Assembly: GCA_002869165.1 (NCBI GenBank)
Contig: PKTK01000006.1
Coordinates: 2,127-66,126 of the forward strand
DNA length: 64,000 nt
Reading direction: 5' to 3'
Origin: Candidatus Parcubacteria bacterium
GTDB lineage: Bacteria > Patescibacteriota > Patescibacteriia > Patescibacteriales > UBA12075
The notes under the pieces were generated by a model. That model did not search any database. It was not told where the DNA came from and was given only the letters and a program-made list of their open reading frames with translations. The position numbers and the translations under genes are program-made. This document shows positions 1,806-29,572 of the stretch, piece after piece. The stretch's first letter is position 1; each line of letters opens with the position of its first letter.

Positions 1806-1810
1806 AAGCT

Positions 1811-3586: not shown

Positions 3587-3589
3587 ATT

Positions 3590-5325: not shown

Positions 5326-5326
5326 A

Positions 5327-6992: not shown

Positions 6993-7148
6993 GTTTTTCA
7001 GTTTTATTTTTCAAAGGAAGGCAAAAACCAATATTTACAACTTCTTTTTGTAACTTTTTACTTTAGATTAGTCATATTGTTTTATATTACTTAAATTATT
7101 TAGTGGCAAATAATAAAGTTTAAGCTACATAATATCCTATTTTTCATG

Positions 7149-8042
7149 CTAAATATCATTCAAGGGATGCTTAATCATCTGCTTTCTCAAATGTTCCGCT
7201 GATGCTTGCAAATAGATTGAAGTGGTTTCCAGCTTCTCGTGTCCCATCATTTTGGAAAGACTAAAAAGGTCGCATCCTCCTTCCAGCATCAAAGTAGCAA
7301 AAGTGTGCCTCAACTTATGGATAGTAAAAACAATATCTGTTTCCTTTCTAAACTTTTCCACCAAACGCTTCATGCAAGTATCAGTAATGCCCATGTTCCT
7401 GTTGAGTGAACAGAAAAATTCTGGAGCAGTTTTACCTAGTCTACTCCTTTCTTCTAAATATTTTTTCAGAATTGCTGTTAAGCGATAGTTAATCGGAATT
7501 ATCCTGTCCTTCGCTCCTTTGCCCTGCCTCACGAACAAAGTTAGGTTTTCAATATCAATATCAGTTAGCTTTAAGTTAATCAATTCCCTCTTTCTTATGC
7601 CCGCAAACAAGAAAACTGCGAAAATCGCATGATTGCGATAGCGTAAATACGGATATTTGTAGGGATAGTTAAAAACTATTTCTAAAAGCCTCATCGCATC
7701 TTGCTTTGTAAGTTTTGGTGGTATCCTTTTTTCAAGTTTAGGACATTCTAGACTTTCTGCTGGATTACTATCAATATAGCCTTCTTCTATACACCAACGA
7801 AAAAACACTACCAGGCTCTTATGATATGTAATAAAAGTATTTGTTTTCCATTTCCTTTTTGTTCTTCCGTCATAAAAAAGTTTTTTTACATTATCATCAG
7901 TAACATCGGTAACATCTGTAATCCCTGTAAAACTAACAAACATGTTTATTATATTGCGATACCTTTTTATGGTCTCAACTGAATATCCCCTGATATACAA
8001 TGAGTGGTCATAAAATTTTTGAGCTATAATTTTTATTTCCAT
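7149..8042 (-). CDS. tyrosine integrase, tRNA-adjacent (paralog of 28039..28932)
   Basis: Catalytic pattern HKLRHTFATLMLEGG...GHEKLETTSIYL. It aligns end to end with the 28039..28932 protein, with most positions identical by eye. I set the start at ATG 8040-8042 (MEIKII) by homology, because the track start is a TTG. Confidence 0.85.
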   Translation of the reverse strand: MEIKIIAQKFYDHSLYIRGYSVETIKRYRNIINMFVSFTGITDVTDVTDDNVKKLFYDGRTKRKWKTNTFITYHKSLVVFFRWCIEEGYIDSNPAESLECPKLEKRIPPKLTKQDAMRLLEIVFNYPYKYPYLRYRNHAIFAVFLFAGIRKRELINLKLTDIDIENLTLFVRQGKGAKDRIIPINYRLTAILKKYLEERSRLGKTAPEFFCSLNRNMGITDTCMKRLVEKFRKETDIVFTIHKLRHTFATLMLEGGCDLFSLSKMMGHEKLETTSIYLQASAEHLRKQMIKHPLNDI

Positions 8043-8068
8043 AAAAAAACACCGCAATTATAGTTGCG
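8043..8068 (-). terminator. hairpin plus T-tract between the tRNA 3' half and the integrase ATG
   Basis: The minus strand reads CGCAAC-TATA-ATTGCG followed by GTGTTTTTTT, running straight into the ATG at 8042. Confidence 0.45.
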
Positions 8069-8082
8069 ATATTTTTTTCTTG

Positions 8083-8124
8083 AGCCGATGTCGGGATTTG
8101 AACCCGATACCCCTACCTTACCAT
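8083..8124 (-). tRNA. 3' half of a split tRNA-Thr(GGU), copy B (anticodon loop to discriminator)
   Basis: The minus strand reads ATGGTAA-GGTAG-GGGTA-TCGGG-TTCAAAT-CCCGA-CATCGGC-T. It pairs perfectly with the 5' half at 29382..29419. No upstream 5' half is adjacent. Confidence 0.8.
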
Positions 8125-8322
8125 CAATTTGGCTTGTAAAATTGTGCCGAATTTAATTCAATGTTAGGAGATTTCTTCCCGATAAAGGGAGGAAAAAGGG
8201 GCGGTAGCTTGGACCACTTTTAGCGCTACCAAACGACTAAATAAAAATCCTAATTAAAGGATTTCTGTGGGATAATAATGCTATTAATAGTAAGCTATAT
8301 TACATAAAAAACTATATCATAA

Positions 8323-9267
8323 CTATAAAAAATTATCAAGAGAAAGCTTCTCGACATCCCCCCGCATAGCCTTTGTTGGCAAACAACGTAAATAAGTGGC
8401 TGTCATCCGGATATCCAAGTGCCCCATCAACTGCTTAAGCTTGGCCACATCTGTGCCACTATTAAGTAAATTGACAGCATAGGTATGGCGTAAGATATGG
8501 ATATGAAAATTAAAATCCAATTCCTCCCTGATCTTATCGATCGTATGTTTAAAGCCGTTCACAGTGAATGCTGTGTCTTTATTTCCGGACACAAACAGAT
8601 TAGGTGTTTTATATCCTTTTTGTTTTCTAGCTTGTAAATAATCTTTCATGATCTCCATGATCTTTGTATTGAGCGGTACTACTCGCTGTCTTTTTGACTT
8701 GGAGGTTGATGCTCGCACTGTCAGTTCTCGCTTATCGGGATTAAAATCACTAACCATTAACCCAAGCAACTCCCCTCTCCGTAATCCGGTGTACAGTGGT
8801 AGAGTTACTAATAGATAATTTCTTTTCCGCACAAAACTATCCTGCCAATCGATTGAATGATTGACTGCAAGAATTAATTTTTCAAGCTTTGCTTTCGAAA
8901 TGTATTTTCGATCTTCGTAATTTACTTGCGGATAAGCCATCTTATCGAAAGGATTTTCCTGAATGTGGCCGTTCACTTTCAACCAATTAAAAAAACGATT
9001 GAACTTTGAGCGATAAGTCGCGACTGTACTGTTCTTTATTCCAAACCTAACTTTACCGCGCCCGACTACCCGCTTTCGTTCATCAAGCTTCTTGAAGAAT
9101 GTTGTCATCACCTCCGGACTCAAGCTATCTAGGCAGATGCCAGGGACTAACTCCAACAATGTGTTGAAGCAGCCCCGGCATCCCCTGATTGTCTCCTCGC
9201 TTAACCTGGAAGAGTAACGGCACTCATTTACATAATCTTCAAATAATTTTTTAATATCTTGATTCAT
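8323..9267 (-). CDS. tyrosine recombinase/integrase (second integrase of the inner element)
   Basis: 314 aa with LYTGLRRGELLGL, HILRHTYAVNLL and GHLDIRMTATYL. It lies about 200 nt from the element end. Confidence 0.85.
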   Translation of the reverse strand: MNQDIKKLFEDYVNECRYSSRLSEETIRGCRGCFNTLLELVPGICLDSLSPEVMTTFFKKLDERKRVVGRGKVRFGIKNSTVATYRSKFNRFFNWLKVNGHIQENPFDKMAYPQVNYEDRKYISKAKLEKLILAVNHSIDWQDSFVRKRNYLLVTLPLYTGLRRGELLGLMVSDFNPDKRELTVRASTSKSKRQRVVPLNTKIMEIMKDYLQARKQKGYKTPNLFVSGNKDTAFTVNGFKHTIDKIREELDFNFHIHILRHTYAVNLLNSGTDVAKLKQLMGHLDIRMTATYLRCLPTKAMRGDVEKLSLDNFL

Positions 9268-9270
9268 AAA

Positions 9271-10923
9271 TTAAAATTGTATCTCGTCAACATTTATTTC
9301 ATCGGTTACAAATTCTTTTTCATTGTCAAATTCATAATAACTATTTCTAATTTCTTCATTGATAAAATCGGCATCCATCCAGCCGTCCTTAACCAACAAT
9401 GAACCACCGGTGAAAGAATTTATGTCAACCTTCGCCCTAGTCTTGTCGGCGATATTGACCCATCTCTTACCTCCTTGCTTATAATGGCTTACGCTTATTC
9501 CTAGTTTTTCTAGATTAGGAATAATTTCTTCCATCTTTCTTACCAACCAACTTGAATTCTTCGGCCAATACTTGTCTCGCATATAATCAAGGTCGTATTG
9601 CTTTGCGTTGCTAATCAGCTTTTTGTATATATACTCAGGTGATCCTGTAATTTCGCCAACTTTATCTGACTTAATTAAATTCATAACAGCTACAGCCACC
9701 GGATTTACTTCGACCGCTTTTTCGTTTTGAGTTAATATATTATTTTCATATGCTTGTAAAAAGGCTTCGCCCCCTGTTTTAATTACTTCATTAATTGCAA
9801 AACCCCATTGTGCAAAATCTGCCATGCGTGGATATTTTTTTAATTTTATGCTTGGCTCTATTTTTATTGCCTCAGATGCAATATCAAAACATTCTCCCAG
9901 TATATACGGCTTCATTTTTTCAAACGTACTTTCGATTTCTTTTTCTGTTTTACGTAAACTCTCTGGAATTCTAGAAAGCTTTATGATCACTGACCTGTCT
10001 AACAAATCTGGTTTATTGGCTACACAGTTAACTCCATTTAATCCTAATATGTTCTTGAAGTTAAAGACAACTTCTTCCTTGTCTGTATATAGTTTGCGTT
10101 GTCCCACTCCCTCTCCTGTGCTGGATCTACATAGCTGGTCTGACTGTTCGACAGTTAGATTCGTAATGTTGTCGTAGAACATCGCCCAATTGCTAGCCAT
10201 AGCGATAGTAAAATCCTGCTGTTTCCCTGCTATTGATCTTGTCTTTAGAGTTGATGGATCAATTATTTCTTTTAAAAATCTTGAGGTTGTGGATTTAGAA
10301 GAGCCTTGCTGACCATGCAACACAAGTATCGGATGAGGAAAATCAGGTATAAAGGCACTGACAATAAAAGTCTTTAATAAAATTTCATCATCCCTTGAAC
10401 TAAGATTTATTAGTCTGATAAAATCATCCAGCCCCTTGCCTTGCAATGGTTCTACTTGCGGCTTCTGTGTGTTAAATCGCCTAAATAAAACTGGAGCATC
10501 TTTGATCGCCCATCCATTTTTATCATAGCGTACTGCCTTCCTGCCAAGGTCATACCAAAACACACCCGAACCTTCTTCAGCAACACGCACATAGAGCTTC
10601 TTTGTGTTCTTTGTTTTTAGCCTTGTTTTGGTATCAATTATTTTTACTGCTTTTATTATTGACTCGGTCCCAGGTGGCTTCTTGTCATGTTCATAACACT
10701 GATATAAAACCCAATTCTTAAATGTGTCTGAGTCTAACTCAACAATTTTTCCAGTACTTTGGTCCAGCAATACTTGTAGGGTATTGTTTTCATCTAAAAA
10801 AATATCTAAATTCGCACTCTCAATAATAGTAATAACCTTCCACACCCCCGTTGCATTGTCTTCTTCGTTGAGGATTTCTTCCTCTTCGTAATCACTAGTA
10901 TTTTTATTAATTTCTTTTTCCAT
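9271..10923 (-). CDS. SF3-helicase-like replication ATPase (D5/P4-alpha C-terminal type)
   Basis: 550 aa with Walker A HGQQGSSKST and Walker B-like AMFYDN. A motif-C-like stretch is LNGVNCVANKPDLLDRSVIIKL. Confidence 0.5.
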   Translation of the reverse strand: MEKEINKNTSDYEEEEILNEEDNATGVWKVITIIESANLDIFLDENNTLQVLLDQSTGKIVELDSDTFKNWVLYQCYEHDKKPPGTESIIKAVKIIDTKTRLKTKNTKKLYVRVAEEGSGVFWYDLGRKAVRYDKNGWAIKDAPVLFRRFNTQKPQVEPLQGKGLDDFIRLINLSSRDDEILLKTFIVSAFIPDFPHPILVLHGQQGSSKSTTSRFLKEIIDPSTLKTRSIAGKQQDFTIAMASNWAMFYDNITNLTVEQSDQLCRSSTGEGVGQRKLYTDKEEVVFNFKNILGLNGVNCVANKPDLLDRSVIIKLSRIPESLRKTEKEIESTFEKMKPYILGECFDIASEAIKIEPSIKLKKYPRMADFAQWGFAINEVIKTGGEAFLQAYENNILTQNEKAVEVNPVAVAVMNLIKSDKVGEITGSPEYIYKKLISNAKQYDLDYMRDKYWPKNSSWLVRKMEEIIPNLEKLGISVSHYKQGGKRWVNIADKTRAKVDINSFTGGSLLVKDGWMDADFINEEIRNSYYEFDNEKEFVTDEINVDEIQF

Positions 10924-10929
10924 GTTTTT

Positions 10930-11451
10930 TTATCGAGTAACCATTGTTAAATTATGCACTGACAATAAATGTCCGATACTTAAAGCATCAACATCTTCAG
11001 CTTCACACCTGAGACAATATTCCAACTGAGCTATCCATTTTACTGAATGAGCAAAACAATCGTAACATATGTCAGAACTGTTTTGATTAAACTCTTCAAG
11101 TAAATTATCTAGGTTTTCTAACAAAGCGCCGTCCATATAGTCCATGTTCCAGTCTAAACCATATATCATTTGACCTTCATTGTTTGATTTTTTTCTTACG
11201 TACAAGAAATTATATCCTTTAGAAAAAAGGAAGGCGGCGAAGGCCATGTCCTCAGTTTCAAAATACGTGTCTTGATTTTTTTCTTTTGTCATTTTTTTAA
11301 ATTTAATACTTACCTTTTCATTGTAGTTGTTTATTGCAAGGCTGTCTGTTCTCGCTTCTATATCAGCATGTAAAAAAATAACTGTATTAATATTAGTCCA
11401 AGGATCGCAGTTATTAACAGCGACCAAAAAGCGATATAGTACCACTACCAA
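10930..11451 (-). CDS. hypothetical protein, DUF5659-like core
   Basis: 173 aa. DTYFETEDMAFAAFLFSKGYNFLYV resembles the DUF5659 pattern as I remember it. The true start may be the internal MTKEKNQ. Confidence 0.4.
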   Translation of the reverse strand: MVVVLYRFLVAVNNCDPWTNINTVIFLHADIEARTDSLAINNYNEKVSIKFKKMTKEKNQDTYFETEDMAFAAFLFSKGYNFLYVRKKSNNEGQMIYGLDWNMDYMDGALLENLDNLLEEFNQNSSDICYDCFAHSVKWIAQLEYCLRCEAEDVDALSIGHLLSVHNLTMVTR

Positions 11452-12287
11452 GATTCCACAAATTTATAACGATTTCGTTTGGCTTTATTATTCAAGTTCT
11501 CACTTTTCTTAATAATAATTTCAAACCTTGAATTGTTAATTATTCCCTGAACTTGATCATTTAACCAATCAACATCCCTCCTAAGCTGATCACTACTGAC
11601 CCTCGTAAATCGAGGGTATTTTGATATATACAAATTTACATCATGATAATCATAGTCCTCACTATCTGCTCTATGTTTGTAAAGGAAGTAATAAATTAGC
11701 GCCTTTCTTCCTGTAATGATCAATGGCTTGAAACTCTTGATTGTTAGTATTCCTTCTGTCTTGCTTTCATTAAACCTATACACAATCGCTTCGTCCGATC
11801 CCGGTTCTGTAATATCCATAATCTGTCCTTGGATAATATTTTTACTTAAGTCTGATAAATTACTAAGTAGCCCTGTATCTATGACGCTGAATCTATTCAA
11901 GCTTGTTATTATTGGTTGTACAATATTTTTTACACTTATATTTCTACAGCCAGCCAAAAGTTTAACTAATTCCTCTTTAAAATCAACTGATATTTTTTTT
12001 AAATCATACAAGGTTTTGACTAGATATTCATTTGTCTGCCCACGTTGAAGTAATAAAACGCCCTTGCGAGAGTCAACCAACATCTTTTCTATTACTTGTA
12101 TAGAATTAATCATTAGTGCTCTGTGCTTATTGCTTTTAATGATCCCCATTTTACTGGAATAAAAAGCGTACTGGTTGGTTTCGAAGTCAGACTCCAGATC
12201 ACAAATCAATTTCCAGAGTATATTAAAAACTTCCCGGCTAGTATAAAGCTTACTGTCCGATTCCTCAGTAATGATATATATCCTCAT
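11445..12287 (-). CDS. hypothetical protein
   Basis: 280 aa ORF, co-oriented, with a 7-nt overlap onto the next gene. No motif recognised. Confidence 0.5.
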   Translation of the reverse strand: MRIYIITEESDSKLYTSREVFNILWKLICDLESDFETNQYAFYSSKMGIIKSNKHRALMINSIQVIEKMLVDSRKGVLLLQRGQTNEYLVKTLYDLKKISVDFKEELVKLLAGCRNISVKNIVQPIITSLNRFSVIDTGLLSNLSDLSKNIIQGQIMDITEPGSDEAIVYRFNESKTEGILTIKSFKPLIITGRKALIYYFLYKHRADSEDYDYHDVNLYISKYPRFTRVSSDQLRRDVDWLNDQVQGIINNSRFEIIIKKSENLNNKAKRNRYKFVESW

Positions 12288-12293
12288 ATTTTG

Positions 12294-12641
12294 TTACTTA
12301 GCTTTTATAAGCGCTTTTTTTATTGCTGACTTTGATATATACAAAGTACCAGGATATTTTCCATGAAATCCATTAATTATCTGAGGCAAGGCTTTTCGGG
12401 CAAACTCTGCTTGAGTTGTAGCAAAGACATTAATGTCAGCTGATTCAGCCAGATAGGCTTCACTCCTCCCATGGTTATGTTTGTCCCACCATTCAAGTTT
12501 ATTTTTACAACAATCACGGCATAAAAAACTCAACCCATTTGGAATTAATCTTGGTCGGTAAGACCTTGTTACTGTAGATCCTGGCGCATATGCCACAGCA
12601 ATAGCTTTTTCAATTTTGTTACCACAATCACATAAAATCAT
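12294..12641 (-). CDS. hypothetical Cys-rich protein
   Basis: 115 aa with C-x-C near the N-terminus and CRDCC. Confidence 0.4.
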   Translation of the reverse strand: MILCDCGNKIEKAIAVAYAPGSTVTRSYRPRLIPNGLSFLCRDCCKNKLEWWDKHNHGRSEAYLAESADINVFATTQAEFARKALPQIINGFHGKYPGTLYISKSAIKKALIKAK

Positions 12642-12673
12642 AATTTTATTTTTTACATTAATTAACTTTTTAC

Positions 12674-12790
12674 TTAAACCTTTCGCTCTTTTAGCAATTT
12701 AATTGCCGCGTCAAGGTCCTTAGTAAAACCAGGCAAGTTTCTAGCTGGCTTTTTCACTAGCGGTTTCTTTGGTTTTTTCTCTTGTTTCAT
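12674..12790 (-). CDS. possible 38-aa basic peptide
   Basis: My hand translation gives MKQEKKPKKPLVKKPARNLPGFTKDLDAAIKLLKERKV. It is below the track cutoff and has no other support. Confidence 0.2.
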   Translation of the reverse strand: MKQEKKPKKPLVKKPARNLPGFTKDLDAAIKLLKERKV

Positions 12791-13087
12791 AGTTATTTTT
12801 ATTAATTAATAAACGCAAAAAAACACAGCCCAAAAAAATGGGTGTGTCTGTACTGTACTAAAATAGTATTTAATTTTACTGCACTTAAATCAATATTCAT
12901 GACGAGAATTTACTTGCTAGCTGAACTATTAATAGCTTATTTTAGTTCACATCTGCTTTTTCGATTCTCTTTTTTGAATATTCAAATTTAAGTATAAAGG
13001 CACTTTAAACTATATTAAAAAATATGTCAATAAACTTATTCAAATAAAAAAACACAAGCATATTCAGCTCATGATTTTTTGCTATAA

Positions 13088-14173
13088 TTATTTTTTAGCT
13101 ATTAACTTTGCCAAATCATCTTCCTTCTCATATCCCCGCAATTCACCGAATAACATACCAAGGCGGTAACTAACCCCGGAAGACATTAAGCGCCAGTTGG
13201 TGGTTTCAAGTGTCTTCTTGATAGCTTTTTCCAGTTGCTTTTTGCTGTCATATTCTTCTCGGCCTGACTTTGCATCTCTGATATTAAACGGTGCTATAAC
13301 ATGACGACCTTGCTCGGGCGTCTTCAGTTCCAATTTGATATACCCCTGTTCTTCCAGCTTGGATACAAGCAGATTCTCTAGCTCAACAATGGATAACTTT
13401 TTTATCGAAGCCACTTTATCGTACAGCTCTTGATTCGCCTCCCTATCTTCAATCTTCCTTAAAACTTTTTGCAACTGATCTGTTCTTATTTTGAAACTTA
13501 AATATTCCTGCCCAGCTTCATCTGATATACAGAACCGATCTCTATCTGTTTCATAATTCGAATCTACTTCTTCGGGCTTGCTTTCCATATCATACTCATA
13601 AGTTTTAATTACTCCATGCTCAGGACATTTGTAATAAGTAGTTATTTTTTCTTCTTCACGTTTATGTGTTTTATCCAAAACTTTACCGCACTTGTCGCAA
13701 TGCTCCGGCGTAGCTTTAAACTCTTCACCGGTATGAAAAAAGCCTCGACCTTTTCGACAACTACCACATCTAAAAATAAATAAAACCTTATCTTCAGTAT
13801 TCAAATTCCCGATATGCAGTGTCTTTGTCTCAACTGACATTTCCTTGTTACATGCTAAACAAAAAATGCCAACCGGAGTTTTGGCACTTTCCATGAGCTC
13901 ATCTCGCTTCTTGTCTTCGTCCATCCATTGACGAATTGTTTCGCTTTTTTCCAAATACCTTTCCCCAGTTTCAAAATATAAACCCAGGTCCTTAAACAAT
14001 CCGTTGGTGGCACGTTTAAATTCATCCTCATTCTTATTACCGGTAATTTTGGTATCACAATCCAAAAAGAACTTTTCCTTTATCCGCATTAAATCAACAG
14101 TCATCCGATCATACCTGTCAATATAATATTGTTCTGACTTTAAATGCTTCTCCATACTATTACTAGTCTTCAA
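13088..14173 (-). CDS. multi-zinc-ribbon protein, unknown function
   Basis: 361 aa with several CxxC pairs (CLACNK, CGSCRK, CDKCGK, KCPEHG). Its start overlaps the FtsK-like gene's stop by 11 nt. Confidence 0.55.
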   Translation of the reverse strand: MKTSNSMEKHLKSEQYYIDRYDRMTVDLMRIKEKFFLDCDTKITGNKNEDEFKRATNGLFKDLGLYFETGERYLEKSETIRQWMDEDKKRDELMESAKTPVGIFCLACNKEMSVETKTLHIGNLNTEDKVLFIFRCGSCRKGRGFFHTGEEFKATPEHCDKCGKVLDKTHKREEEKITTYYKCPEHGVIKTYEYDMESKPEEVDSNYETDRDRFCISDEAGQEYLSFKIRTDQLQKVLRKIEDREANQELYDKVASIKKLSIVELENLLVSKLEEQGYIKLELKTPEQGRHVIAPFNIRDAKSGREEYDSKKQLEKAIKKTLETTNWRLMSSGVSYRLGMLFGELRGYEKEDDLAKLIAKK

Positions 14174-15749: not shown

Positions 15750-16138
15750 ATAATATTCATTATTTGTTTTAACTTATCTGGTTCTGATTTTAGATTGATT
15801 AAAATAATTTTTTCTTTGGCATTATTCTCAGCTAGAACATTCGATTCTGCTTGCATAACATAGTCATCCAGCCAACGAAAGTCCTGACTAAAATCTATCG
15901 CTTCAGTTTTAAGTGTTTGCCAGTTAGTAGATTTGATCTTATCCAAACAAGGCAATACCTCATCTGGCAACTTGTCCTGTAAATACTGAGCTGTTACTTG
16001 TGCATTACCTCGACAGTGGGTAGTAAGCCAATATACATTATGTTTATCAGTAATATATTTTAAAAATTCAGAAACATAATCTGCTGGCTTCGAATCTTTT
16101 TTAATTAAAACTTGATCTATATCCAGATAAATATTCAT
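15746..16138 (-). CDS. HAD-like small phosphatase/nucleotidase-like protein
   Basis: 130 aa with an N-terminal DxDxV motif (LDIDQVL) and a late WLDD. Confidence 0.4.
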   Translation of the reverse strand: MNIYLDIDQVLIKKDSKPADYVSEFLKYITDKHNVYWLTTHCRGNAQVTAQYLQDKLPDEVLPCLDKIKSTNWQTLKTEAIDFSQDFRWLDDYVMQAESNVLAENNAKEKIILINLKSEPDKLKQIMNII

Positions 16139-16154
16139 AAAAATATATTAGTTT

Positions 16155-16499
16155 CTACAATTCATTTTCTTCAATAGCATCTTCGACCCATCTACTTACA
16201 TCGCTAATTTCATATACTTTGTCAGGATAAACAGCAACAATTTTATAATTATTATGTAGTTCACATTCGCTCCAAACTTTCTTACACAACTTACATTTTT
16301 TATTACTGTCTAAAGGTTCAACATAACCAACATAAACTTGGTAATCCATTTCTTCATGTGGTCCATGAATTTTCCAGGTTTCATCCAAACATGGAGACAG
16401 GTTTAGTTCAGGTAATTTTTTTCTAATTTTATGAAAATGATATTCATTTCCTTCTTCGTTTAATTTTATATCACCCATATCTTTTATTTTTATGGCCAA
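16155..16499 (-). CDS. hypothetical protein
   Basis: 114 aa ORF in the operon-like run, containing CKLCKK. No family recognised. Confidence 0.4.
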   Translation of the reverse strand: MAIKIKDMGDIKLNEEGNEYHFHKIRKKLPELNLSPCLDETWKIHGPHEEMDYQVYVGYVEPLDSNKKCKLCKKVWSECELHNNYKIVAVYPDKVYEISDVSRWVEDAIEENEL

Positions 16500-16705
16500 A
16501 ACTGCGCTGCAATATTGGCTGCTTTTTTAGTTGAATATTCCCACTGTTCTCCGGCGCATGTCCCCATGTCCCAGCGAATATGTCGTTCAAATATACACCC
16601 GGTTAGAAAATACCATGGAAAAAAAATGAGGCGTAACGCAAGAAATATTAATATACATAATACAACCCCTCCCCAAAAAACTTTTTCCTTCTTAGTTATG
16701 TACAT
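16490..16705 (-). CDS. small membrane protein (71 aa)
   Basis: The internal ATG (MYITKKEKVFWGGVVLCILIFLAL...) at 16703-16705 lies 1 nt after the stop of the 787-aa gene. It has one or two hydrophobic helices. Confidence 0.4.
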   Translation of the reverse strand: MYITKKEKVFWGGVVLCILIFLALRLIFFPWYFLTGCIFERHIRWDMGTCAGEQWEYSTKKAANIAAQFWP

Positions 16706-16706
16706 A

Positions 16707-22011: not shown

Positions 22012-22012
22012 A

Positions 22013-23197
22013 TTAAAATATTGAATTAATTATATTAGTATTTATTTTTTTCACATCACTATAATAATCAATTAAATTTATAATTTTACTATCAATATCA
22101 TTGATAAAGTCAGTAATTCTTTCTTGTTCCTTTATTGGTGGCATTAAAAGGGGAAATTTTTTAATACTTTTTTCCTTAATTGCAGTAATACCAGTGGTTC
22201 CTACAGTATATTTTTTAATCAAATATTTATATTCCATTGAATTAAACTTGTGAAAAAGAAAATTTGTATTTACATCTTTATCTTTATTTCTAATAACCAA
22301 AACAAAGCTATCAGCGAAGTAACCATTATCAATATTGAACAAACAAGTTCTGCCCAAAGTTCCTTGTCCACCTGTATTAAATAGAATATCGCCATTTTGA
22401 AGCATTTTTTCTTTAACATTATTAAAATCAATATTTATCTTAGCTATCCTTTCCGCTTTTACACCTTCTGGAAATACCGCTCCCGATGGGATCAACTTAT
22501 ATTTTCCGTTTGAACTCTTTTCCGCGTTCACTCCTTTAAACCATTTAATTTCAAATGAACCCAGAACCCCTGTTTTCCAATTTGATGGAGTATTATTTGT
22601 ATACTTACCCTTCGCTAGATTATCATAACCAATCAATAATAATTTCTGTGAAACAACGTCTTTATATGTCTTTAAGCTGTTAATGCAATTTAAAGTGTTT
22701 TCTCGCAAATCGTCTACAGATTTTATTAATTCTAAAAAATCTTTTTGCTGCTTTATGGGTGGCAATAAAAAATTTTGTTTTGAAAGAATGTTCCATTTTA
22801 TGGTTGGTGACAATGACCCCTCCGAAATATCAATTGCTCTATGCATAAAACTATCAGAGTGTAAAAAAAATGGAAATAATTCTGGTAAGATAACATTTGA
22901 CTTTGCTCGTAAAACCATAGAATGTGCAGAACAAATACCATTAAAAGTTGCTATTGCGGCTTTCCTTTGATATGCTCTTCGTTTGCCAAAAATAACATCT
23001 CCTTTATAAATTTTCAACTTCGTCCCAATGACATCAGAAGGATGCCCGTGCCTCTTAATGTGGATTGAATTAGAATCTAAATGTTCAAGCCCAACATAAA
23101 TCTCTGATTCACTTTCGATCGGTTCTACTCTTTCAGAAATATTCTCTGAAATATCATTAAATCTATATTTGTTCCAATTCTGTTTATTTATTTTCAT
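22013..23197 (-). CDS. hsdS: type I R-M specificity subunit
   Basis: 394 aa with two half-repeats, each ending in the conserved spacer helix (LLPPIKQQKDF... and LLMPPIKEQERI...). Confidence 0.85.
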   Translation of the reverse strand: MKINKQNWNKYRFNDISENISERVEPIESESEIYVGLEHLDSNSIHIKRHGHPSDVIGTKLKIYKGDVIFGKRRAYQRKAAIATFNGICSAHSMVLRAKSNVILPELFPFFLHSDSFMHRAIDISEGSLSPTIKWNILSKQNFLLPPIKQQKDFLELIKSVDDLRENTLNCINSLKTYKDVVSQKLLLIGYDNLAKGKYTNNTPSNWKTGVLGSFEIKWFKGVNAEKSSNGKYKLIPSGAVFPEGVKAERIAKINIDFNNVKEKMLQNGDILFNTGGQGTLGRTCLFNIDNGYFADSFVLVIRNKDKDVNTNFLFHKFNSMEYKYLIKKYTVGTTGITAIKEKSIKKFPLLMPPIKEQERITDFINDIDSKIINLIDYYSDVKKINTNIINSIF

Positions 23198-24641
23198 AAT
23201 TAAATATATTATTAATTTCAGATTTAATACTGTTTGATTTTTTTTTCCATTCTTTAATAAATTTTTTTATGTCAATTTCTTTGCTATAGTTTTTATAATT
23301 TCCAACGTTTGAGATATATAACGATATTGTAAGATTTGAATCGAACTTTAAAATTTCATCGATACTTACAATCTTCGCAAATCCTTCAATGTCCATATAA
23401 TTTTTATATGCTTTATATATTTTTGAAATATTTATATCTGTTAGGTAGCTAAGTCCATTAAAATTTTCTACATCGTTTATAGCATTAATGAAAAAAATAT
23501 TGTTTTTTTGCTTTTTTATTTTGTTATTTTTACAAATAAGCAAACAAGCTTCCATAGGAGAGTTGTAAAACAAATTTGGACCTAAACCTATTACAGCTTC
23601 AATCAAGTCAGCCTCAATTAATTTTCTTCTGATTTCTTTTTCTTGATCTCTAAATAATATTCCGTGAGGCCAAAGCACTACTGACCGACCATATTTTTTA
23701 TCCGAACTCTTTAATATATGCTGTTGAAAAGCATAGTCTGCGCACCCCTGAGGTGGAGTACCAAACATATTTCTACCATAAGGATCATGCTCAAAAGAAT
23801 TTCTATCCCAACGCTTAATCGAGTAAGGTGGATTAGCAAGTATTACATTAAACTTTTTAAGTTCATCGTTTTCTATAAAAGCTGGGTTTTTAAGTGTATC
23901 CCCTCTATCAATTTGAAAATCTTCAATCCCATGCATAAACATATTCATCCTAGCTATTGAAGATGTTATTAGATTTATTTCTTGACCATATAGTTTTAAC
24001 GAACGAAATTCTTTACCCTGTCTTTTTAACTCAAGAGCACAATTCAAAAGCATACCTCCTGAACCACAGGTTGGATCATAAACACTTTCTCCAGGTTTTG
24101 GATCCATTAATTTTGTCATTAATTGCACTACTGTTCTGTTTGTATAAAATTCAGCAGCTGTGTGACCGCTGTCATCTGCGAATTTCTTAATTAAAAATTC
24201 ATATCCATCGCCCAGTTTGTCATCAGGTACATTTTGAATTGTTAACTTTTTTTGAGAAAAATGTTCTATCAGATCAATTAATATTTCATCAGATAGCCTT
24301 TGCTTATTAGTCCATGCGGCATCACCAAAAATGCCATACAACACATCCTTGTTTGTCTTTTCAATAGTCTCCATGGCTTTCTGTATCGCCATTCCTATAT
24401 TTTTACTTATCCGTCTGATGTCTTTCCAGTGAGATCCTTCAGGTATTTTAAATCGATGATATTCAGCATAATCATTTCCAGTCTCTTTTTCAGATAACTC
24501 TTTTTCTTCGTCAAAGACATCGCATATACGTTTGTAAAAAAGTAACGGGAATATATACTGTTTATAATCACCAGGATCAATTACTCCTCGCAAAAGAGTT
24601 GCCGCGCCCCATAAATAATTTTCTAATTCATTTTGTTTCAT
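23184..24641 (-). CDS. hsdM: type I R-M methyltransferase subunit, paralog 2
   Basis: 485 aa with an HsdM N-terminal pattern (YIFPLLFYKRI), motif I DPTCGSGGML and motif IV NPPYS. It has EFYTNR where the paralog has EFYTPR. Confidence 0.9.
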   Translation of the reverse strand: MKQNELENYLWGAATLLRGVIDPGDYKQYIFPLLFYKRICDVFDEEKELSEKETGNDYAEYHRFKIPEGSHWKDIRRISKNIGMAIQKAMETIEKTNKDVLYGIFGDAAWTNKQRLSDEILIDLIEHFSQKKLTIQNVPDDKLGDGYEFLIKKFADDSGHTAAEFYTNRTVVQLMTKLMDPKPGESVYDPTCGSGGMLLNCALELKRQGKEFRSLKLYGQEINLITSSIARMNMFMHGIEDFQIDRGDTLKNPAFIENDELKKFNVILANPPYSIKRWDRNSFEHDPYGRNMFGTPPQGCADYAFQQHILKSSDKKYGRSVVLWPHGILFRDQEKEIRRKLIEADLIEAVIGLGPNLFYNSPMEACLLICKNNKIKKQKNNIFFINAINDVENFNGLSYLTDINISKIYKAYKNYMDIEGFAKIVSIDEILKFDSNLTISLYISNVGNYKNYSKEIDIKKFIKEWKKKSNSIKSEINNIFNYENK

Positions 24642-26131
24642 AGTAGGTCAAACTTTTTTAATTGTTTTTTAAAATATTTTTCAGAATCCCACATCTTTTG
24701 TATTGTTATATTTGCCTGCTTTTTTACATCGTCTATTTTAGGTAAAAAATCTTCGATTTCTTTTTCTATATATAATGGAATGCTCAAACTATAATCGTTA
24801 TCCTTGACTTCTTTTAGGCTGGCAATATGTACATAATTTTTTACTTCCGCATATTTATCGTACCATTTATAAATTTGTATAATATGTTTTTTTTCTAAAA
24901 AATTTTGTGCTCGTCCAGTTTTCATTTGCTCACTAGCATCAATAAAGATTATTTTATTAATTTTATTTCTCACTTTCTGTTTTCTTAAAACAATAATACA
25001 TGGAGCAAGGGTAGTACCATAAAATATATTAGACCCTAAACCAATCACTGCTTCAATTAAATCATTCTGAATAATTGATTTGCGTATTTTACCCTCCTTC
25101 CCTTCTCTAGTAAGGGCTCCCTGAGGAAGAACCACTGCCATTCTGCCTACGATTGATTCCATGGAACTAATCATATGTTGTACCCAGGCATAATCCCCGT
25201 TCGAATCATTGGGAACTCCAAATAAATTCCTTCCAAATGGATCGGGCTCCCACTTTTTTGAACCCCACTTCTTCAATGAAAAAGGTGGATTAGCAACGAC
25301 ACAATTAAACTTTGCTAATTTGTCACCATCAAAAAAAGCTGGGTCTCTTAAAGTATCTCCTCGTATAATATTAAAATCTTCAATCCCATGCAAAAACATA
25401 TTCATCCTCACAATGGTTGAAGTAGTCAAGTTCTTTTCCTGACCATAAAGCTTTAAGGTCCTTGCGTCTTTACCAGATTCTTTAATGTGATGACTAGCCT
25501 CTAAAAGCATGCCGCCAGTACCACAAGCAGGATCATAAACCTTATCCCCCTCCTTGGGATCAAGAATGTTTATCATCAAACTAACCACATTTCTTGGTGT
25601 ATAAAACTCTCCTGCTTTTTTGTTTGTTAAATCTGCGAAATGTTTTATCAAATATTCATATGCCTGGCCCAACATATCAGGCTCTACATTTTGATTTGTT
25701 AATTCATATTTAGAAAAATGCTCGATCAAATCAATCAATAATTCGTCTGATAATTTTTCCTTATTACTCCATTGAGTATCACCAAAAATACCATATAAAA
25801 ATTCCTGATTCGTTTTTTCGATTTCTCTAAAAGCATATTGAAGCTTCTGTCCAACATTTATAGTTGTTTCCCTGACATCACGCCAATGACATCCTTCGGG
25901 AATCGTAAATCTATGAAATTCTGGTAATGTTGCATATTCCTCATCTCCGCCTGACTCCTTTAAAGCTTGCTTATATTCTTCTTCGTATACATCTGATATA
26001 CGTTTATAAAATAAAAGTGGAAATATATATGCCTTAAAATCAGCAGCATCTACTGGTCCTTTTAAAATCCAAGCAGCCTTAGCTAAGTACTGTTCAAGTT
26101 GTGATAAAGATATTTGTGTATCCTTAGGCAT
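24638..26131 (-). CDS. hsdM: type I R-M methyltransferase subunit, paralog 1
   Basis: 497 aa with YIFPLLFYKRI, GEFYTPR, DPACGTGGML and NPPFS. It overlaps paralog 2 by 4 nt. Confidence 0.9.
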   Translation of the reverse strand: MPKDTQISLSQLEQYLAKAAWILKGPVDAADFKAYIFPLLFYKRISDVYEEEYKQALKESGGDEEYATLPEFHRFTIPEGCHWRDVRETTINVGQKLQYAFREIEKTNQEFLYGIFGDTQWSNKEKLSDELLIDLIEHFSKYELTNQNVEPDMLGQAYEYLIKHFADLTNKKAGEFYTPRNVVSLMINILDPKEGDKVYDPACGTGGMLLEASHHIKESGKDARTLKLYGQEKNLTTSTIVRMNMFLHGIEDFNIIRGDTLRDPAFFDGDKLAKFNCVVANPPFSLKKWGSKKWEPDPFGRNLFGVPNDSNGDYAWVQHMISSMESIVGRMAVVLPQGALTREGKEGKIRKSIIQNDLIEAVIGLGSNIFYGTTLAPCIIVLRKQKVRNKINKIIFIDASEQMKTGRAQNFLEKKHIIQIYKWYDKYAEVKNYVHIASLKEVKDNDYSLSIPLYIEKEIEDFLPKIDDVKKQANITIQKMWDSEKYFKKQLKKFDLL

Positions 26132-26311
26132 AATTTAATATATAAAAAATAAATAAAAAAAGAATTGAATTGATTTAATTCTCTTTTAATTTACCACTTT
26201 TTAATACCTTAAGTCAAGGTCAAAATCGCTAATTCTCGCTGAAAACTAGGGTGTTTTGTCAAGTGTTAGGTATAATTTACCGTGTAGATTGATATAAATT
26301 ATACGACAACA

Positions 26312-26349
26312 ACAAAAAAGCCGAGGAATTCATATTGAATACCCCGGCT
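26312..26349 (-). terminator. rho-independent terminator-like hairpin
   Basis: The minus strand reads GCCGGGG-(15 nt)-CCTCGGC followed by TTTTTTGTTG, 9 nt after the stop of the 26358..26696 gene. Confidence 0.55.
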
Positions 26350-26357
26350 TTAATGAT

Positions 26358-26696
26358 TTATGCCTGCTTTGTATACCTACAATTCGGATAAGACTTACAT
26401 CCATAGAAGAATCCATTGCGCCCGCTTCTCTGGACAAGCTTGTTCCCGCACTCAGGACAAGTGCTAGACTCATCTTCCTCATCTGGGAATAAATCATTAG
26501 CTGTAATTCTTTTCGGTTCCGGTTCTGCGCCAATGCTAGCCTGACTATCCATATGGTTCTTTAATTGACTAAAAAGCTGAATAGCTTCGGCGACATCGTC
26601 TGTCCTGATATTAAGAAGTGTACTACGCTCAAGAATGTTTCCAAGCGCATCTGTTTTGACTGACCCATTGATTTGGATTTTGTTAATTGTTTCCAT
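26358..26696 (-). CDS. protein with C-terminal topoisomerase-type C4 zinc finger
   Basis: 112 aa. CPECGNKLVQRSGRNGFFYGCKSYPNCRY matches the Topo C4 finger pattern. Confidence 0.65.
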   Translation of the reverse strand: METINKIQINGSVKTDALGNILERSTLLNIRTDDVAEAIQLFSQLKNHMDSQASIGAEPEPKRITANDLFPDEEDESSTCPECGNKLVQRSGRNGFFYGCKSYPNCRYTKQA

Positions 26697-26700
26697 AATT

Positions 26701-26862
26701 TTAATCCGTCTTTAGACCGCACCGACGACAAACCGAGAAGTAATAAACTTCATCGTTCTCATAATCGAAAGCCGGAACTGTAAGAAACTTATGATTACAG
26801 TTTCTTTGTTTAACTTTTTCAACTTTGATTACAGCAGTGTCGATACTTAATTGTTTAGACAT
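26701..26862 (-). CDS. possible 53-aa zinc-ribbon-like peptide
   Basis: My hand translation gives MSKQLSIDTAVIKVEKVKQRNCNHKF...VCRRCGLKTD. The stop lies 4 nt before the next gene's ATG. It is below the track cutoff. Confidence 0.3.
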   Translation of the reverse strand: MSKQLSIDTAVIKVEKVKQRNCNHKFLTVPAFDYENDEVYYFSVCRRCGLKTD

Positions 26863-26949
26863 TGTATTATTAAATTAATTATAAAGTGAAGGAAAGCTAG
26901 AATAAGTAATACCCTAGCTAACCACTCACCAATTTCCCTAGCGCCCACG

Positions 26950-27210
26950 CTAAACTTTAGTTACCTGACTGGAAACGAAATCCATTCCATCCAGAAAGTA
27001 ATTAAATACTGAGGATCTATTAGCCTCGTCTTTAGTCATGAGTTCTCCTTGTCCCGATAACACGTAGTCATCAAACAAGCCGGGAACGTTGCGATTAAAT
27101 CGCGTTCGTAGGTCGCAGTCGGAAGCAATCCGGGCAACCACGCTTTTTATATCCATTAGTTTTACTTTATGAATTATAAAACCGCCCTGTGTTAGAGCGG
27201 TTATTAGCAC
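26950..27210 (-). CDS. hypothetical protein
   Basis: 86 aa ORF starting 9 nt after the upstream stop. An alternative start is MDIKSVV. Confidence 0.4.
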   Translation of the reverse strand: MLITALTQGGFIIHKVKLMDIKSVVARIASDCDLRTRFNRNVPGLFDDYVLSGQGELMTKDEANRSSVFNYFLDGMDFVSSQVTKV

Positions 27211-27219
27211 GACAAGACT

Positions 27220-27510
27220 TTAAGTCTCAATCTTTGATACCTGTTTATGATAAAAAAGATTTACGACTCTTGGATAACGGGTTACGACGTTGCCATTATC
27301 ATCCGTCTTCTCAACAATTGTAGTTGACTTGAGAGCTTTCTCTCCTTTATTAACCTTGTAACCGGCTTTGGCCCAGCTACGAAAAGTTAATGCATTAGAA
27401 TAGGGGTCGTAATTAGCTACTTCCTCCTCGCCCCATCTGTCTGCAATTTGTGCTGCTACTCGACGATAGGTCTCTTGTGAGCCGCGATAAGTTGATCTTG
27501 GTTTTTCCAT
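27220..27510 (-). CDS. ArdC N-terminal-domain-like (ssDNA-binding, antirestriction-type) protein
   Basis: 96 aa. ALTFRSWAKAGYKVNKGEKALKSTTIV resembles the W..G..V.KGEK core of the ArdC_N domain. The protein is short, so this is domain-level only. Confidence 0.45.
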   Translation of the reverse strand: MEKPRSTYRGSQETYRRVAAQIADRWGEEEVANYDPYSNALTFRSWAKAGYKVNKGEKALKSTTIVEKTDDNGNVVTRYPRVVNLFYHKQVSKIET

Positions 27511-27685
27511 ACGATTGTTAACTTAATAATTAGTAACGCCCCCAAATTTGTCGACCTTTAAAAAAATAATTAAGGGGTCAATACTATATGCCCATCCGCT
27601 TCCGATACCGTTGGAACAGATATTGTTTATATTAAATAAAAAAAAGACCATCAGTATAAAACTAATGATCATATTGTGTGGTTGT

Positions 27686-27714
27686 GGACACCAAAGACGC
27701 CATGGACGCCATCC
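27686..27714 (+). repeat. tandem GGACRCC-type short repeats (cluster 1)
   Basis: GGACACCAAA-GACGCCAT-GGACGCCAT in the 528-nt non-coding gap downstream of the integrase. Confidence 0.5.
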
Positions 27715-28017
27715 TAGCTACAAAAAAGGGCCTCCCCCCGAGGTCTAAAAGAGTAGATACCAGGAAGTCTGGGTATATTCAAGCCTATTTTTTTTATAAC
27801 ACCAAAAACACGAACATGCGTTCGTATTTAAATCATAAAAAGTGTGTAAAAAGTATAGCAAACTTATAGCATTTCTTATGCAAAGTTATATTGGCTATTA
27901 AATAACTAATATTAAATAAAACAATAGCAAATTTATTCTTATAGCCGGCTTTAACGTGGTAACAAGCTTGTGGGAATAAACAAAACACCCCTTCTCCCCC
28001 TAGAATCTAGTCATGAA

Positions 28018-28035
28018 AGACGTGAAGGACGTGAA
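28018..28035 (+). repeat. tandem (A/G)GACGTGAA repeats (cluster 2)
   Basis: AGACGTGAA-GGACGTGAA, ending 3 nt before the integrase stop codon. Confidence 0.5.
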
Positions 28036-28038
28036 AAA

Positions 28039-28932: not shown

Positions 28933-28960
28933 ACAAAAAAGCCTGCAGTATTATCCGCAG
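28933..28960 (-). terminator. hairpin plus T-tract between tRNA-Thr copy C and the integrase ATG
   Basis: The minus strand reads CTGCGG-ATAATA-CTGCAG (one G-U pair) followed by GCTTTTTTGT and then the ATG at 28932. The architecture matches 8043..8068. Confidence 0.45.
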
Positions 28961-28972
28961 ACTTTTTCTTTG

Positions 28973-29251
28973 AGCCGAAACCGGGACTTGAACCCGGGAC
29001 CCCTTCCTTCGTTTACACCCTATTTTATATAACACATATATAGGGGCTAGACTGTATCTCAGACATATCCCTTCTTATCGGGACTTAGTCTCTCTTGTCA
29101 GTCGTTCGGGCGTATTGTTAATTGACGCCACGGTCTTAACCTTGTGTCAGGTCTTTAACCGTTATTCGAGATTCGATATCAGGTTTCCCTGATAAAGGGC
29201 AAGAGACAAACGTCTCACCATGGAAGTGCTCTACCACTGAGCTATTTCGGC
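28973..29251 (-). tRNA. tRNA-Thr(GGU), copy C, interrupted by a 207-nt intron
   Basis: Exon 1 (29251->29217) is GCCGAAA-TA-GCTC-AGTGGTA-GAGC-A-CTTCC-ATGGT. Exon 2 (29009->28973) is AA-GGAAG-GGGTC-CCGGG-TTCAAGT-CCCGG-TTTCGGC-T. All stems are Watson-Crick and no CCA is encoded. Confidence 0.8.
29010..29216 (-). ncRNA. group I-like self-splicing intron in the anticodon loop (between nt 36 and 37)
   Basis: The 5' exon ends in U and the intron ends in G. A P1-like hairpin forms as GGT|GAGAC-GTTT-GTCTC-TT-GCC, placing a U-G pair at the splice site. A P2-like hairpin is TATCAGG-GAAA-CCTGATA. GTCAATT and AGAGACTAAGTC resemble conserved group I core segments. Its size is similar to known bacterial tRNA introns of about 200 nt. 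Confidence 0.6.
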
Positions 29252-29271
29252 ATGTTTTAATTGTACAAAAT

Positions 29272-29296
29272 GATGTCCTTGATGTCCATGACGTCC
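29272..29296 (-). repeat. tandem GGACRTC-type repeats (cluster 3)
   Basis: The minus strand reads GGACGTCAT-GGACATCAA-GGACATC, between att junction B and tRNA copy C. Confidence 0.5.
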
Positions 29297-29381
29297 AGAG
29301 CCCGCGACCACTTTTGACATGGAGATGGTCACTACCTATACTTTCTTAGCTAGCCTTAGCTCAAACCACTAGACCACTTCT

Positions 29382-29419
29382 TTACCATGGTAGTGCTCTA
29401 CCAAGTGAGCTACATCGGC
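29382..29419 (-). tRNA. 5' half of the split tRNA-Thr(GGU), copy B
   Basis: The minus strand reads GCCGATG-TA-GCTC-ACTTGGTA-GAGC-A-CTACC-ATGGTAA, then non-tRNA sequence (AGAAGTGGTCTAGTGG...). Confidence 0.8.
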
Positions 29420-29535
29420 AAAAATATATAAATTTTACTAACTTTTTTATAATAGCCGATGACCCGTTCTTGTAGTGAACGAGTGCTATCTCCCATTTTG
29501 ACAGTAATGCTAGCTAAAACCACTAGACCTGTTTA

Positions 29536-29572
29536 TTACCATGGAAGTGCTCTACCACTGAGCTATATCGGC
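29536..29572 (-). tRNA. tRNA-Thr(GGU) 5' portion, copy A, with no matching 3' half in the window
   Basis: The minus strand reads GCCGATA-TA-GCTC-AGTGGTA-GAGC-A-CTTCC-ATGGTAA, then TAAACAGGTCTAGTGGTTT..., which is not a tRNA 3' half. Confidence 0.65.

Follow-up and report, generated by a model that had tools for sequence, protein, structure and literature searches.

Contig PKTK01000006.1 of Candidatus Parcubacteria, a member of the candidate phyla radiation (CPR; assembly GCA_002869165.1), carries three 5' portions of a tRNA-Thr(GGU) gene in tandem, and the question raised by this locus is how they came to be there and which of them still belongs to a complete gene. The DNA analysed, referred to here as the window, is a stretch of 64,000 nt (positions 2,127-66,126 of the contig); every gene in it is on the - strand, as are the three tRNA portions, which start at 29572 (copy A), 29419 (copy B) and 29251 (copy C). 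The locus is very probably the product of two site-specific integrative elements of one family, nested in a chromosomal tRNA-Thr(GGU) gene. An outer element bearing TerL, with ~10.3 kb of its own DNA, would have entered copy A and brought copy B; a 21.3-kb inner element, with a type I restriction-modification (R-M) system and an FtsK-like translocase, would then have entered copy B and brought copy C; and copy C would be the sole intact gene left, dependent on the self-splicing of a group I intron. At each step the exchange would take place between the element's attachment site (attP) and the anticodon loop of a tRNA-Thr(GGU) gene without an intron; the presumed catalysts are the two Xer-like tyrosine recombinases encoded on either side of attP in the circle, acting singly or together. 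The loss of this tRNA, presumably an essential one, would be offset by the element's complete tRNA-Thr(GGU), which lies ~110-125 bp inside the left end, upstream of the left recombinase gene, with its own promoter-like site and terminator.

The junctions at copies A and B are the first line of evidence. Past the anticodon loop ATGGTAA the sequence leaves the tRNA in both cases, and the 13-nt block GGTCTAGTGGTTT, which has exactly two copies in the window (29517-29529 and 29363-29375), lies 6 nt past the loop each time. The block begins with the GGTC that ends a core-adjacent site, TAAACAGGTC or AGAAGTGGTC, so that block and site overlap; in many related loci, the junction at an orphan half is typically CCATGGTAA followed directly by TAAACAGGTC. 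For both elements, the identity between the inferred attP and the host site (attB) is exactly ATGGTAA with nothing on either side, and this 7-bp loop would be the overlap region, or core, of the exchange. As attP and attB share only the loop, recombination leaves the host 5' half next to arm DNA and does not restore a tRNA. The predicted outer attP includes GGGTTGTTGATGGTAATAAACAGGTCTAGTGG, the predicted inner attP includes CAAGCCAAATTGATGGTAAAGAAGTGGTCTAGTGG, and the predicted restored copy B includes GCACTACCATGGTAAGGTAGGGGTATCGGG.

These junctions bear directly on classical tandem accretion, in which each island would have repaired the tRNA with its own 3' half, so that copies A and B would once have been whole genes and have decayed since. 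Such a history would be in keeping with the canonical design of relatives in the same recombinase family, which have a tRNA-Lys or tRNA-Thr 3' half in attP, and canonical islands also leave displaced 3' halves at their distal ends. It is nonetheless very improbable: after ATGGTAA both junctions enter conserved arm DNA (TAAACAGGTC or AGAAGTGGTC) and no tRNA 3' half; no tRNA is called at either junction by ARAGORN, and the scores with the Rfam tRNA model, 17 and 14 bits, stay under the cut-off of 29 bits; the 5' half of copy A is undecayed, being identical at 37 of 37 positions to the gene at an empty site; and a separate complete tRNA gene follows each junction. Copies A and B were also considered as tRNAs with inserts of ~40 nt, as GGGAG and GGTAG downstream could close the anticodon stem, and this was rejected, the true 3' halves being 21 and 31 kb off.

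The displaced 3' halves are the second line of evidence. That of copy B, read from 8124 to 8082, has the sequence ATGGTAA-GGTAG...CATCGGC and pairs with the copy B 5' half in both the acceptor stem (GCCGATG/CATCGGC) and the anticodon stem (CTACC/GGTAG), and it is unfit for copy A or C. The joined halves are called as tRNA-Thr(GGU) by ARAGORN; the construct kept six junction bases, which were reported as a 6-nt intron. A 3' half for copy A is not found within window positions 1-7148. The ORF (open reading frame) at the left edge of the window was used to extend the sequence leftwards, leading to a JGI 97-kb contig (locus L001) with 3 mismatches to the window in 10,780 overlapping bases. An earlier interpretation of the locus from its letters only (the sequence-only reading) had predicted that a leftward extension would contain ATGGTAA-GGAAG...TATCGGC, and an exact match, ttgATGGTAAGGAAGGGGTCTCGAGTTCAAGTCTCGATATCGGCTCA, is present at L001 12774-12817 (about window position -1993), ~2 kb past the left edge and preceded by a recombinase gene, int5. 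When the copy A 5' half is joined to L001 12781-12817, the product is identical at 74 of 74 positions to the intact tRNA at the empty site of locus L166.

Relatives provide the third line of evidence, as loci with zero, one and two layers are seen at one syntenic site, a comparison that the sequence-only reading had called for. The zero-layer locus L166, found via homologues of the TPR protein encoded next to copy A, shares the upstream gene order and has the uninterrupted tRNA-Thr(GGU) just described, and in L168 and L169 an intact tRNA-Thr(GGU) is directly downstream of the homologous TPR gene. Downstream of the site, the 342-aa ORF that follows the copy A 3' half in L001 is not homologous to the CofD gene that follows the L166 empty site, so that synteny is limited to the upstream side. 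One layer is seen in L003, a Patescibacteria metagenome-assembled genome (MAG), in which an inner-type element alone is inserted directly into the chromosomal gene between syntenic flanks; it is 77% identical to the window over 3.4 kb, the alignment begins exactly at the B junction, and its orphan 5' half has begun to decay. The window has two layers and is the sole such case, as none of 83 other loci has two orphan halves, which makes nesting rare. With the matching halves and the empty and one-layer sites, the order of events proposed by the sequence-only reading, an outer element into copy A bringing copy B and then the inner 21-kb element into copy B bringing copy C, is borne out.

The same evidence can be held against two further explanations. 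The nesting could be an assembly chimera of two single-element populations, given that these are metagenome assemblies and that similar modules in both elements could mislead an assembler. This is highly improbable, as the stretch running from int3 to the A 3' half, with the B 3' half, int2 and the outer cargo in between, is present on the JGI contig (97 kb) and also on an ENA contig (46 kb), the source samples being JGI 3300007102 and ENA ERZ794999; the two halves of copy B match each other and are distinct from A and C; and the repeated modules, at 62-77% identity, are too divergent for assembly collapse; an identical TPR protein is also encoded on a 67-kb NCBI MAG contig, although this is a protein match only. 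That copies A and B arose by local duplication or are pseudogene remains, with no insertion involved, would account for three similar 5' portions within 350 nt, yet it has a negligible chance in view of the matching 3' halves 21.3 kb and 31.5 kb away, the single intact gene at the empty site and the one-layer relative.

A module of tRNA 3' end, hairpin with T-tract and recombinase gene is present twice in the window, and this module, like the three 5' portions and the 13-nt block shared at a 6-nt offset, was correctly placed by the sequence-only reading. Upstream of copy C, a promoter-like sequence (TGGACA, 17-nt spacer, TACAAT; 29288 to 29260) ends 9 nt before the gene. Hairpins resembling terminators separate the tRNA 3' end from the recombinase gene in both modules (Table 1); the one at 28933..28969 was left unlisted by a consensus-based scan. 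Copy C is called as tRNA-Thr(GGU) by ARAGORN with the -i option and on the spliced sequence, and its spliced form is 1 nt away from the native L168 tRNA. A default ARAGORN run finds no tRNA in the entire window, because a 207-nt insert interrupts copy C after nt 36. Two features go beyond the sequence-only reading: the intron in copy C and the second recombinase at the far end of each element.

Table 1. Positions of the tRNA copies, att-site arms, recombinase genes and cargo of the two elements in the window
Feature	Window positions	Strand	Remarks
Copy A, orphan 5' half of the chromosomal tRNA-Thr(GGU)	29536..29572	-	Includes 7-bp core ATGGTAA (29542 to 29536); attL of outer element
P' arm, outer element	29420..29535	-	Core-adjacent site TAAACAGGTC; second site AACGGGTC near copy B
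Copy B, 5' half of the outer element's intron-less replacement tRNA-Thr(GGU)	29382..29419	-	Core ATGGTAA (29388 to 29382); attL of inner element
P' arm, inner element	29252..29381	-	Two RAAGTGGTC sites (29380 to 29372, 29314 to 29306); promoter-like site; arm conserved in L003
Copy C, the inner element's replacement tRNA-Thr(GGU)	28972..29251	-	5' exon 29251 to 29217; intron 29216 to 29010; 3' exon 29009 to 28972
Terminator-like hairpin between copy C and int1	28933..28969	-	Flanking A and T tracts; -17.8 kcal/mol, z = -6.9
int1, left-end Xer-like tyrosine recombinase (inner), 297 aa	28039..28932	-	Pfam PF00589 + PF13495
Inner cargo	9268..28038	-	ArdC-like fragment, Topo-type Zn ribbon, type I R-M, FtsK/SpoIIIE, ~10 unmatched ORFs
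int3, right-end Xer-like tyrosine recombinase (inner), 314 aa	8323..9267	-	Counterpart of int5
P arm, inner element	8125..8322	-	Third RAAGTGGTC (8220 to 8212); family-wide motif CCCTTTAT
Copy B, displaced 3' half with core ATGGTAA (8124 to 8118)	8082..8124	-	attR of inner element
Terminator-like hairpin between copy B 3' end and int2	8043..8081	-	-14.1 kcal/mol, z = -6.4
int2, left-end Xer-like recombinase (outer), 297 aa	7149..8042	-	62% identical to int1
Outer cargo	1..7148	-	TerL 5574-6992, int4 4429-5373, Lactamase_B/tail-like ORF 3590-4360, others

Both elements follow a common plan: core, P' arm (110-125 nt), whole tRNA-Thr, terminator, left recombinase, cargo, right recombinase, P arm (~200 nt) and core. 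The inner element measures 21,264 bp between its two cores, and the outer element spans 31,535 bp with the inner one included, both figures being computed from the coordinates; to the left, the outer element runs on for ~2 kb outside the window, where it has int5 and an attR made of the core and the A 3' half, a part included in both the JGI and ENA contigs. The cargo of the two differs. The outer element has the phage-type genes TerL and a tail-like ORF, and directly after TerL a third and unrelated tyrosine recombinase, int4 (314 aa), which is only 21-25% identical to the others and on whose start the JGI and ENA gene calls disagree. The inner element encodes a type I R-M system of two HsdM, HsdS and HsdR (19045-26131) and an FtsK/SpoIIIE translocase (14163-15749). 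There are no PHROG structural or packaging matches in the inner cargo, FtsK being its sole PHROG match, and the inner element is thus one without recognisable phage genes.

The recombinases next to the tRNA genes are paralogous, as had been proposed from the sequence: int1 and int2 are 62% identical over 297 aa and are members of a large family adjacent to tRNA-Thr genes. The right-end pair, int3 and int5, is 49% identical, int3 and int1 share 30%, and int1 is 89% identical to its homologue in L003. These proteins are Xer-like by architecture (PF00589 with a SAM-like N domain), and Xer equivalog status in NCBIfam is not reached, with XerA as the best match at 184 bits against a cut-off of 220 and XerC/XerD at ~165 against ~330. 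As profile matches cover nearly the whole protein, there is probably little space for a lambda-type arm-binding domain. In every case the right-end recombinase is paired with a left-end one, lying opposite it across attP or in convergent orientation. In IMG/VR the recombinase has no close relative (identity of 33% or less), and both junction sequences are absent from the viral contigs searched.

A recombinase search returned the family set of 83 further loci (3 genome and 80 metagenome loci, 58-89% identity). A tRNA-Thr gene is immediately upstream of the recombinase gene in ~45 of them, and ~25 of these ~45 also keep one orphan 5' half, 150-180 nt further upstream. Un-split attP modules, in the order right recombinase, P arm, core, P' arm, tRNA, left recombinase, are present in L031 and L081, where the core is ATGGTAA, and in L072 and L028, where it is TTTGTAA and the tRNA is tRNA-Thr(UGU); the core and the carried tRNA therefore vary together. 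The motif AAACAGGTC recurs in the P arm, beside the core and in the P' arm, and an arm-site motif is found three times per attP in an element-specific form, RAAGTGGTC in the inner element and one like AACAGGTC in the outer. Three of the four occurrences of RAAGTGGTC in the 64 kb fall in the inner element's arms, on one strand. The canonical design, with a tRNA 3' half in attP, is seen in the same recombinase family for tRNA-Lys (L055, L058, L022, L074) and for tRNA-Thr(GGU) (L032), so that both designs exist among close relatives. A large sister group (L029, L030, L033, L043, L050, L051 and others) targets tRNA-Lys(UUU/CUU) in the canonical way, with the 3' half in attP and a full tRNA ~190 nt upstream of the recombinase gene, and would be a natural reference for the origin of the replacement design.

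The insert in copy C is a group I intron. It lies after nt 36 (position 36/37), between ATGGT and AAGGAAG and inside the 7-bp core, and ends in G. Sixteen homologous inserts of 182-230 nt were aligned and have a conserved structure in group I order: in P1 the exon GGU pairs with the intron GCC, the U.G at the splice site is invariant (16/16), and the terminal G before AAGG is present in all 16. The other helices, named by the authors' own assignment, are P2 with a GAAA loop, P3 and P7 in a pseudoknot arrangement, P4-P6, P8 and P9. The structure comprises 48 pairs in 10 helices, with 96.4% of cells paired compared with 28-49% in slid controls; compensatory changes occur at 25 pairs, and the observed covariation values are matched in 0 of 500 shuffles. 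The intron would be removed by splicing. An apparent likeness between CCCTTTATCGGGAAG in the inner P arm and the intron 5' end GCCCTTTATCAGGGAA was rejected as coincidental, (A/C)CCTTTATTT being a P-arm motif across the family that is found in intron-less elements too.

Introns of this kind have been described. In PMC13011429 (Nakagawa et al. 2026), "divergent group I introns" are reported at 36/37 of tRNA-Thr(GGU) in Patescibacteria, missed by RF00028, mislabelled as Arg(GCG) by ARAGORN and without homing endonucleases, and the same class is present in the Williams 2020 tFind preprint. The intron in copy C is alike in tRNA, insertion site, phylum and detection behaviour, and the intron-bearing loci of this set receive the same Arg(GCG) mislabel. 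Unlike in those two sources, where integrases and mobile elements go unmentioned (zero occurrences of the word "integrase"), here 17 of 17 intron-bearing examples are part of an attP-tRNA-recombinase module and interrupt its target core, although all 17 were retrieved with a recombinase query and are thus a biased sample.

Other observations were made on the introns and their exons. A 17-nt pattern of the intron core has 44 matches in viral contigs, about the number expected by chance on the authors' estimate, with L196 (IMGVR_UViG_3300020570_000137) and L210 as exceptions. L196 has three near-identical copies of the intron core (6384-6400, 6852-6868, 7666-7682), L210 has the same spacing, and in both the core reads AATCCCGAATAyCGGTTAAA...AGACCG...CGAACGACTGACAAGGG...GATACAGTC, apparently within coding sequence and uncalled by RF00028, which suggests that the same divergent group I intron class is also present in phage genes. 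In L053, L085, L044, L049 and L080, the orphan 5' half and the replacement 5' exon are identical or one base apart, even in odd acceptor stems (GCTGCTG; GCCC[A/G]CT), and the L053 3' exon pairs via a G.U wobble, as though the 5' exon alone had been converted. This match could reflect gene conversion between adjacent copies or host-specific co-divergence.

Several points weigh against the picture of nested, excisable elements with an intron-bearing replacement gene. The copy A 3' half is on a near-identical contig and outside the window itself; the census of tRNA-Thr(GGU) genes covers the 97-kb contig only; and the un-split forms are seen in other contigs, excision products or circular junctions of the window's two elements being unobserved. 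The Rfam model RF00028 (Intron_gpI) does not match the insert even at E <= 10 (661 nt), nor does it match in the 17 loci at the gathering threshold. Finally, un-split attP-like modules are present in two contigs of very large size, L005 (343 kb) and L021 (678 kb), which a simple excised circle leaves unexplained. These modules, at 4645-6891 in L005, have a right recombinase, an arm, a tRNA-Thr(UGU or CGU) and a left recombinase with degenerate cores, and no orphan halves are found near them in the 12.9-kb L005 locus or in 1.5 kb upstream of the L021 recombinase gene; they may be fossil, domesticated, or elements anchored by another route.

Whether a replacement tRNA can itself be targeted is a separate question, on which the family offers a pattern. 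The following counts for bases 29-31 of the anticodon stem are the authors' own reading of a per-locus table in which the loci are not independent. Among the orphan 5' halves, which represent targets, these bases are YCC in 24/25. Intron-bearing replacement tRNAs have YCC in 17/17 and a stem identical to that of the neighbouring orphan half in 9/11, and the intron lies within the 7-bp core in all 16 aligned cases. By comparison, intron-less replacement tRNAs have a purine at 29 in 12/17, 14-15 of the 17 deviate from YCC plus ATGGTAA, and none of 11 has the stem of its own neighbouring orphan half. The contrast between the two types has a Fisher p of ~1e-6, uncorrected for relatedness. In L011, L047 and L039, base 29 is the sole change in the 5' strand of the stem, and on a rough neighbour-joining recombinase tree the loci with an intron are intermixed with those lacking one. 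Copy B (CTACC) is the sole orphan half with a purine at 29, and the element that hit it has the divergent arm sites RAAGTGGTC.

From these correlations it is tentatively proposed, as a possibility somewhat short of probable, that replacement tRNAs are built to be untargetable by one of two devices, either a group I intron in the core (between ATGGT and AA) or a change of the base pair 29:41 from YCC...GGR to RCC...GGY. Copy B, with A29 and no intron, might then be a case of the second device overcome by an element with divergent arm sites. The rival to this protection reading alone is that the intron is a selfish passenger on a mobile tRNA and the base-29 differences are neutral lineage markers with no effect on targeting, for which the chances appear about even. 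The 36/37 introns already described in tRNA-Thr(GGU) of Patescibacteria have no homing endonucleases (PMC13011429), and a ride on an element would explain their spread; the native tRNA at the syntenic site in L169 already has the stem CCACC; and the int1 relative of L003 used a T29 target while int1 used an A29 target, so that this integrase is indifferent to position 29. Speaking against the passenger and neutral markers are the position of the intron inside the core in 16/16, the opposite stem patterns of intron-bearing and intron-less copies, their interleaving on the recombinase tree, and the three loci in which base 29 alone changes in the 5' strand. The claim of the sequence-only reading that each replacement tRNA becomes the next target stands for copy B and probably fails for copy C, in which the intron splits the core.

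Protection of tRNA genes by disruption is an older idea: as cited in PMC4390854, Randau & Soll (2008) hypothesised that disrupted tRNA genes guard against mobile-element integration. The proposal made here resembles theirs in that an intron in the anticodon loop would destroy the DNA target of the integrase and leave the mature tRNA unchanged. It differs in that theirs concerns archaeal protein-spliced introns or split genes as a host defence, and here the intron is a bacterial group I intron in the element's own tRNA.

The closest known system is tRNA-dependent lysogeny, shown experimentally in mycobacteriophages and described for Fionnbharth/K4 and cluster L actinobacteriophages (PMC10865867, Guerrero-Bustamante & Hatfull 2024), in which a tyrosine integrase acts at a tRNA gene through a core of ~10 bp, no tRNA is reconstructed, and lysogeny depends on a phage tRNA of the isotype that was hit. 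Close relatives such as Boilgate use a 43-bp core that rebuilds the tRNA. The same paper names a probable non-actinobacterial example, prophage Lj965 of Lactobacillus johnsonii, and speculates that a second plasmid may integrate into a plasmid-borne tRNA. The elements in the window share with this system a tyrosine recombinase (the presumed catalyst here), the anticodon-loop region, a short core (7 bp here) and the lack of a rebuilt tRNA; the isotype of the element tRNA matches the target, as copies B and C are tRNA-Thr(GGU) and the ~45 related loci include Thr(UGU) with TTTGTAA; and close relatives again use a canonical tRNA-rebuilding core (L032, L055, L058). They differ in host (Patescibacteria as opposed to Actinobacteria) and target (tRNA-Thr as opposed to tRNA-Lys), in having short Xer-like recombinases as a conserved pair flanking attP, in having the tRNA gene immediately between attP and the recombinase gene, and in the natural nesting via an element tRNA, the intron in a replacement tRNA and the inner element without recognisable phage genes. 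The statement of the sequence-only reading that a replace-rather-than-repair strategy with nesting was undescribed therefore needs to be divided: the strategy is described (PMC10865867), and natural nesting is new. Also new are the occurrence in a CPR host, a cargo in which no phage genes are recognised, the pairing of Xer-like recombinases and the location of an intron in the core.

Sublocation classes of tRNA-targeting integration were reportedly distinguished by Williams in 2002. Canonical tRNA/tmRNA islands (Islander, PMC4383910) resemble the elements described here in that crossover occurs in the symmetric anticodon stem-loop, the integrase gene adjoins the tRNA end, a displaced 3' fragment is left at the far end, and insertions are repeated at one tRNA locus. 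In a canonical island the host 5' part and the island 3' part together make a new intact gene, and successive insertions give tandem arrays of 3' fragments, whereas here there is no regeneration at attL, orphan 5' halves accumulate at one end and the elements are nested.

The surroundings of the locus have further features. Right of 29572 are housekeeping genes for the TPR protein, a class II aldolase, TIM, a D-Ala-D-Ala carboxypeptidase, ScpB and ScpA. Giant - strand ORFs lie at 36114-54866 (6250 aa) and 58479-63869 (1796 aa) with a GIY-YIG nuclease ORF (55059-55532) between them; giant ORFs are common in CPR genomes. On the opposite side, right after the copy A terminator, L001 12855-12880 is an inverted partial copy of the tRNA A T-arm and acceptor (GATATCGTGCTTGAACTCGAG), also present in L166. 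A relic is seen ~130 nt downstream of the chromosomal tRNA-Thr (L001 ~12950-12995; L166 ~5110-5155; L168 ~5105-5165, with repeats to 5400), made up of TGA(T/G)GG.GTG, a hairpin that shows compensatory changes, CTTCAAGTC and a 3' end resembling that of an acceptor, GGCTCA; the L168 relic lies within a ~190-nt tandem repeat together with the tRNA 3' end and the terminator. The L001 relic was considered as an older layer of the series and rejected, as it is also found in the empty-site genomes L166 and L168, and is for that reason older than both elements.

The finding extends the disruption and replacement of tRNA genes, so far known from actinobacteriophages, to the CPR/Patescibacteria, where it is widespread and where mobile elements are poorly known, and it indicates that elements in which no phage genes are recognised also follow the replacement strategy. 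The tRNA gene carried by one element can become the landing site of the next, as seen in a type I R-M island inside a phage-like element. If the protection reading is true, it would constitute direct genomic evidence for tRNA introns shielding tRNA genes from integrases and would give a function to the tRNA-Thr introns of Patescibacteria; the link of the intron or base 29 with targeting makes the long-standing speculation on protection by tRNA disruption testable by recombination with defined substrates. Standard tRNA finders see no tRNA-Thr(GGU) here, which could be mistaken for gene loss. If the tRNA is single-copy, the host's only working tRNA-Thr(GGU) would belong to the innermost element and would need splicing, an arrangement that would amount to addiction-like retention of the element.

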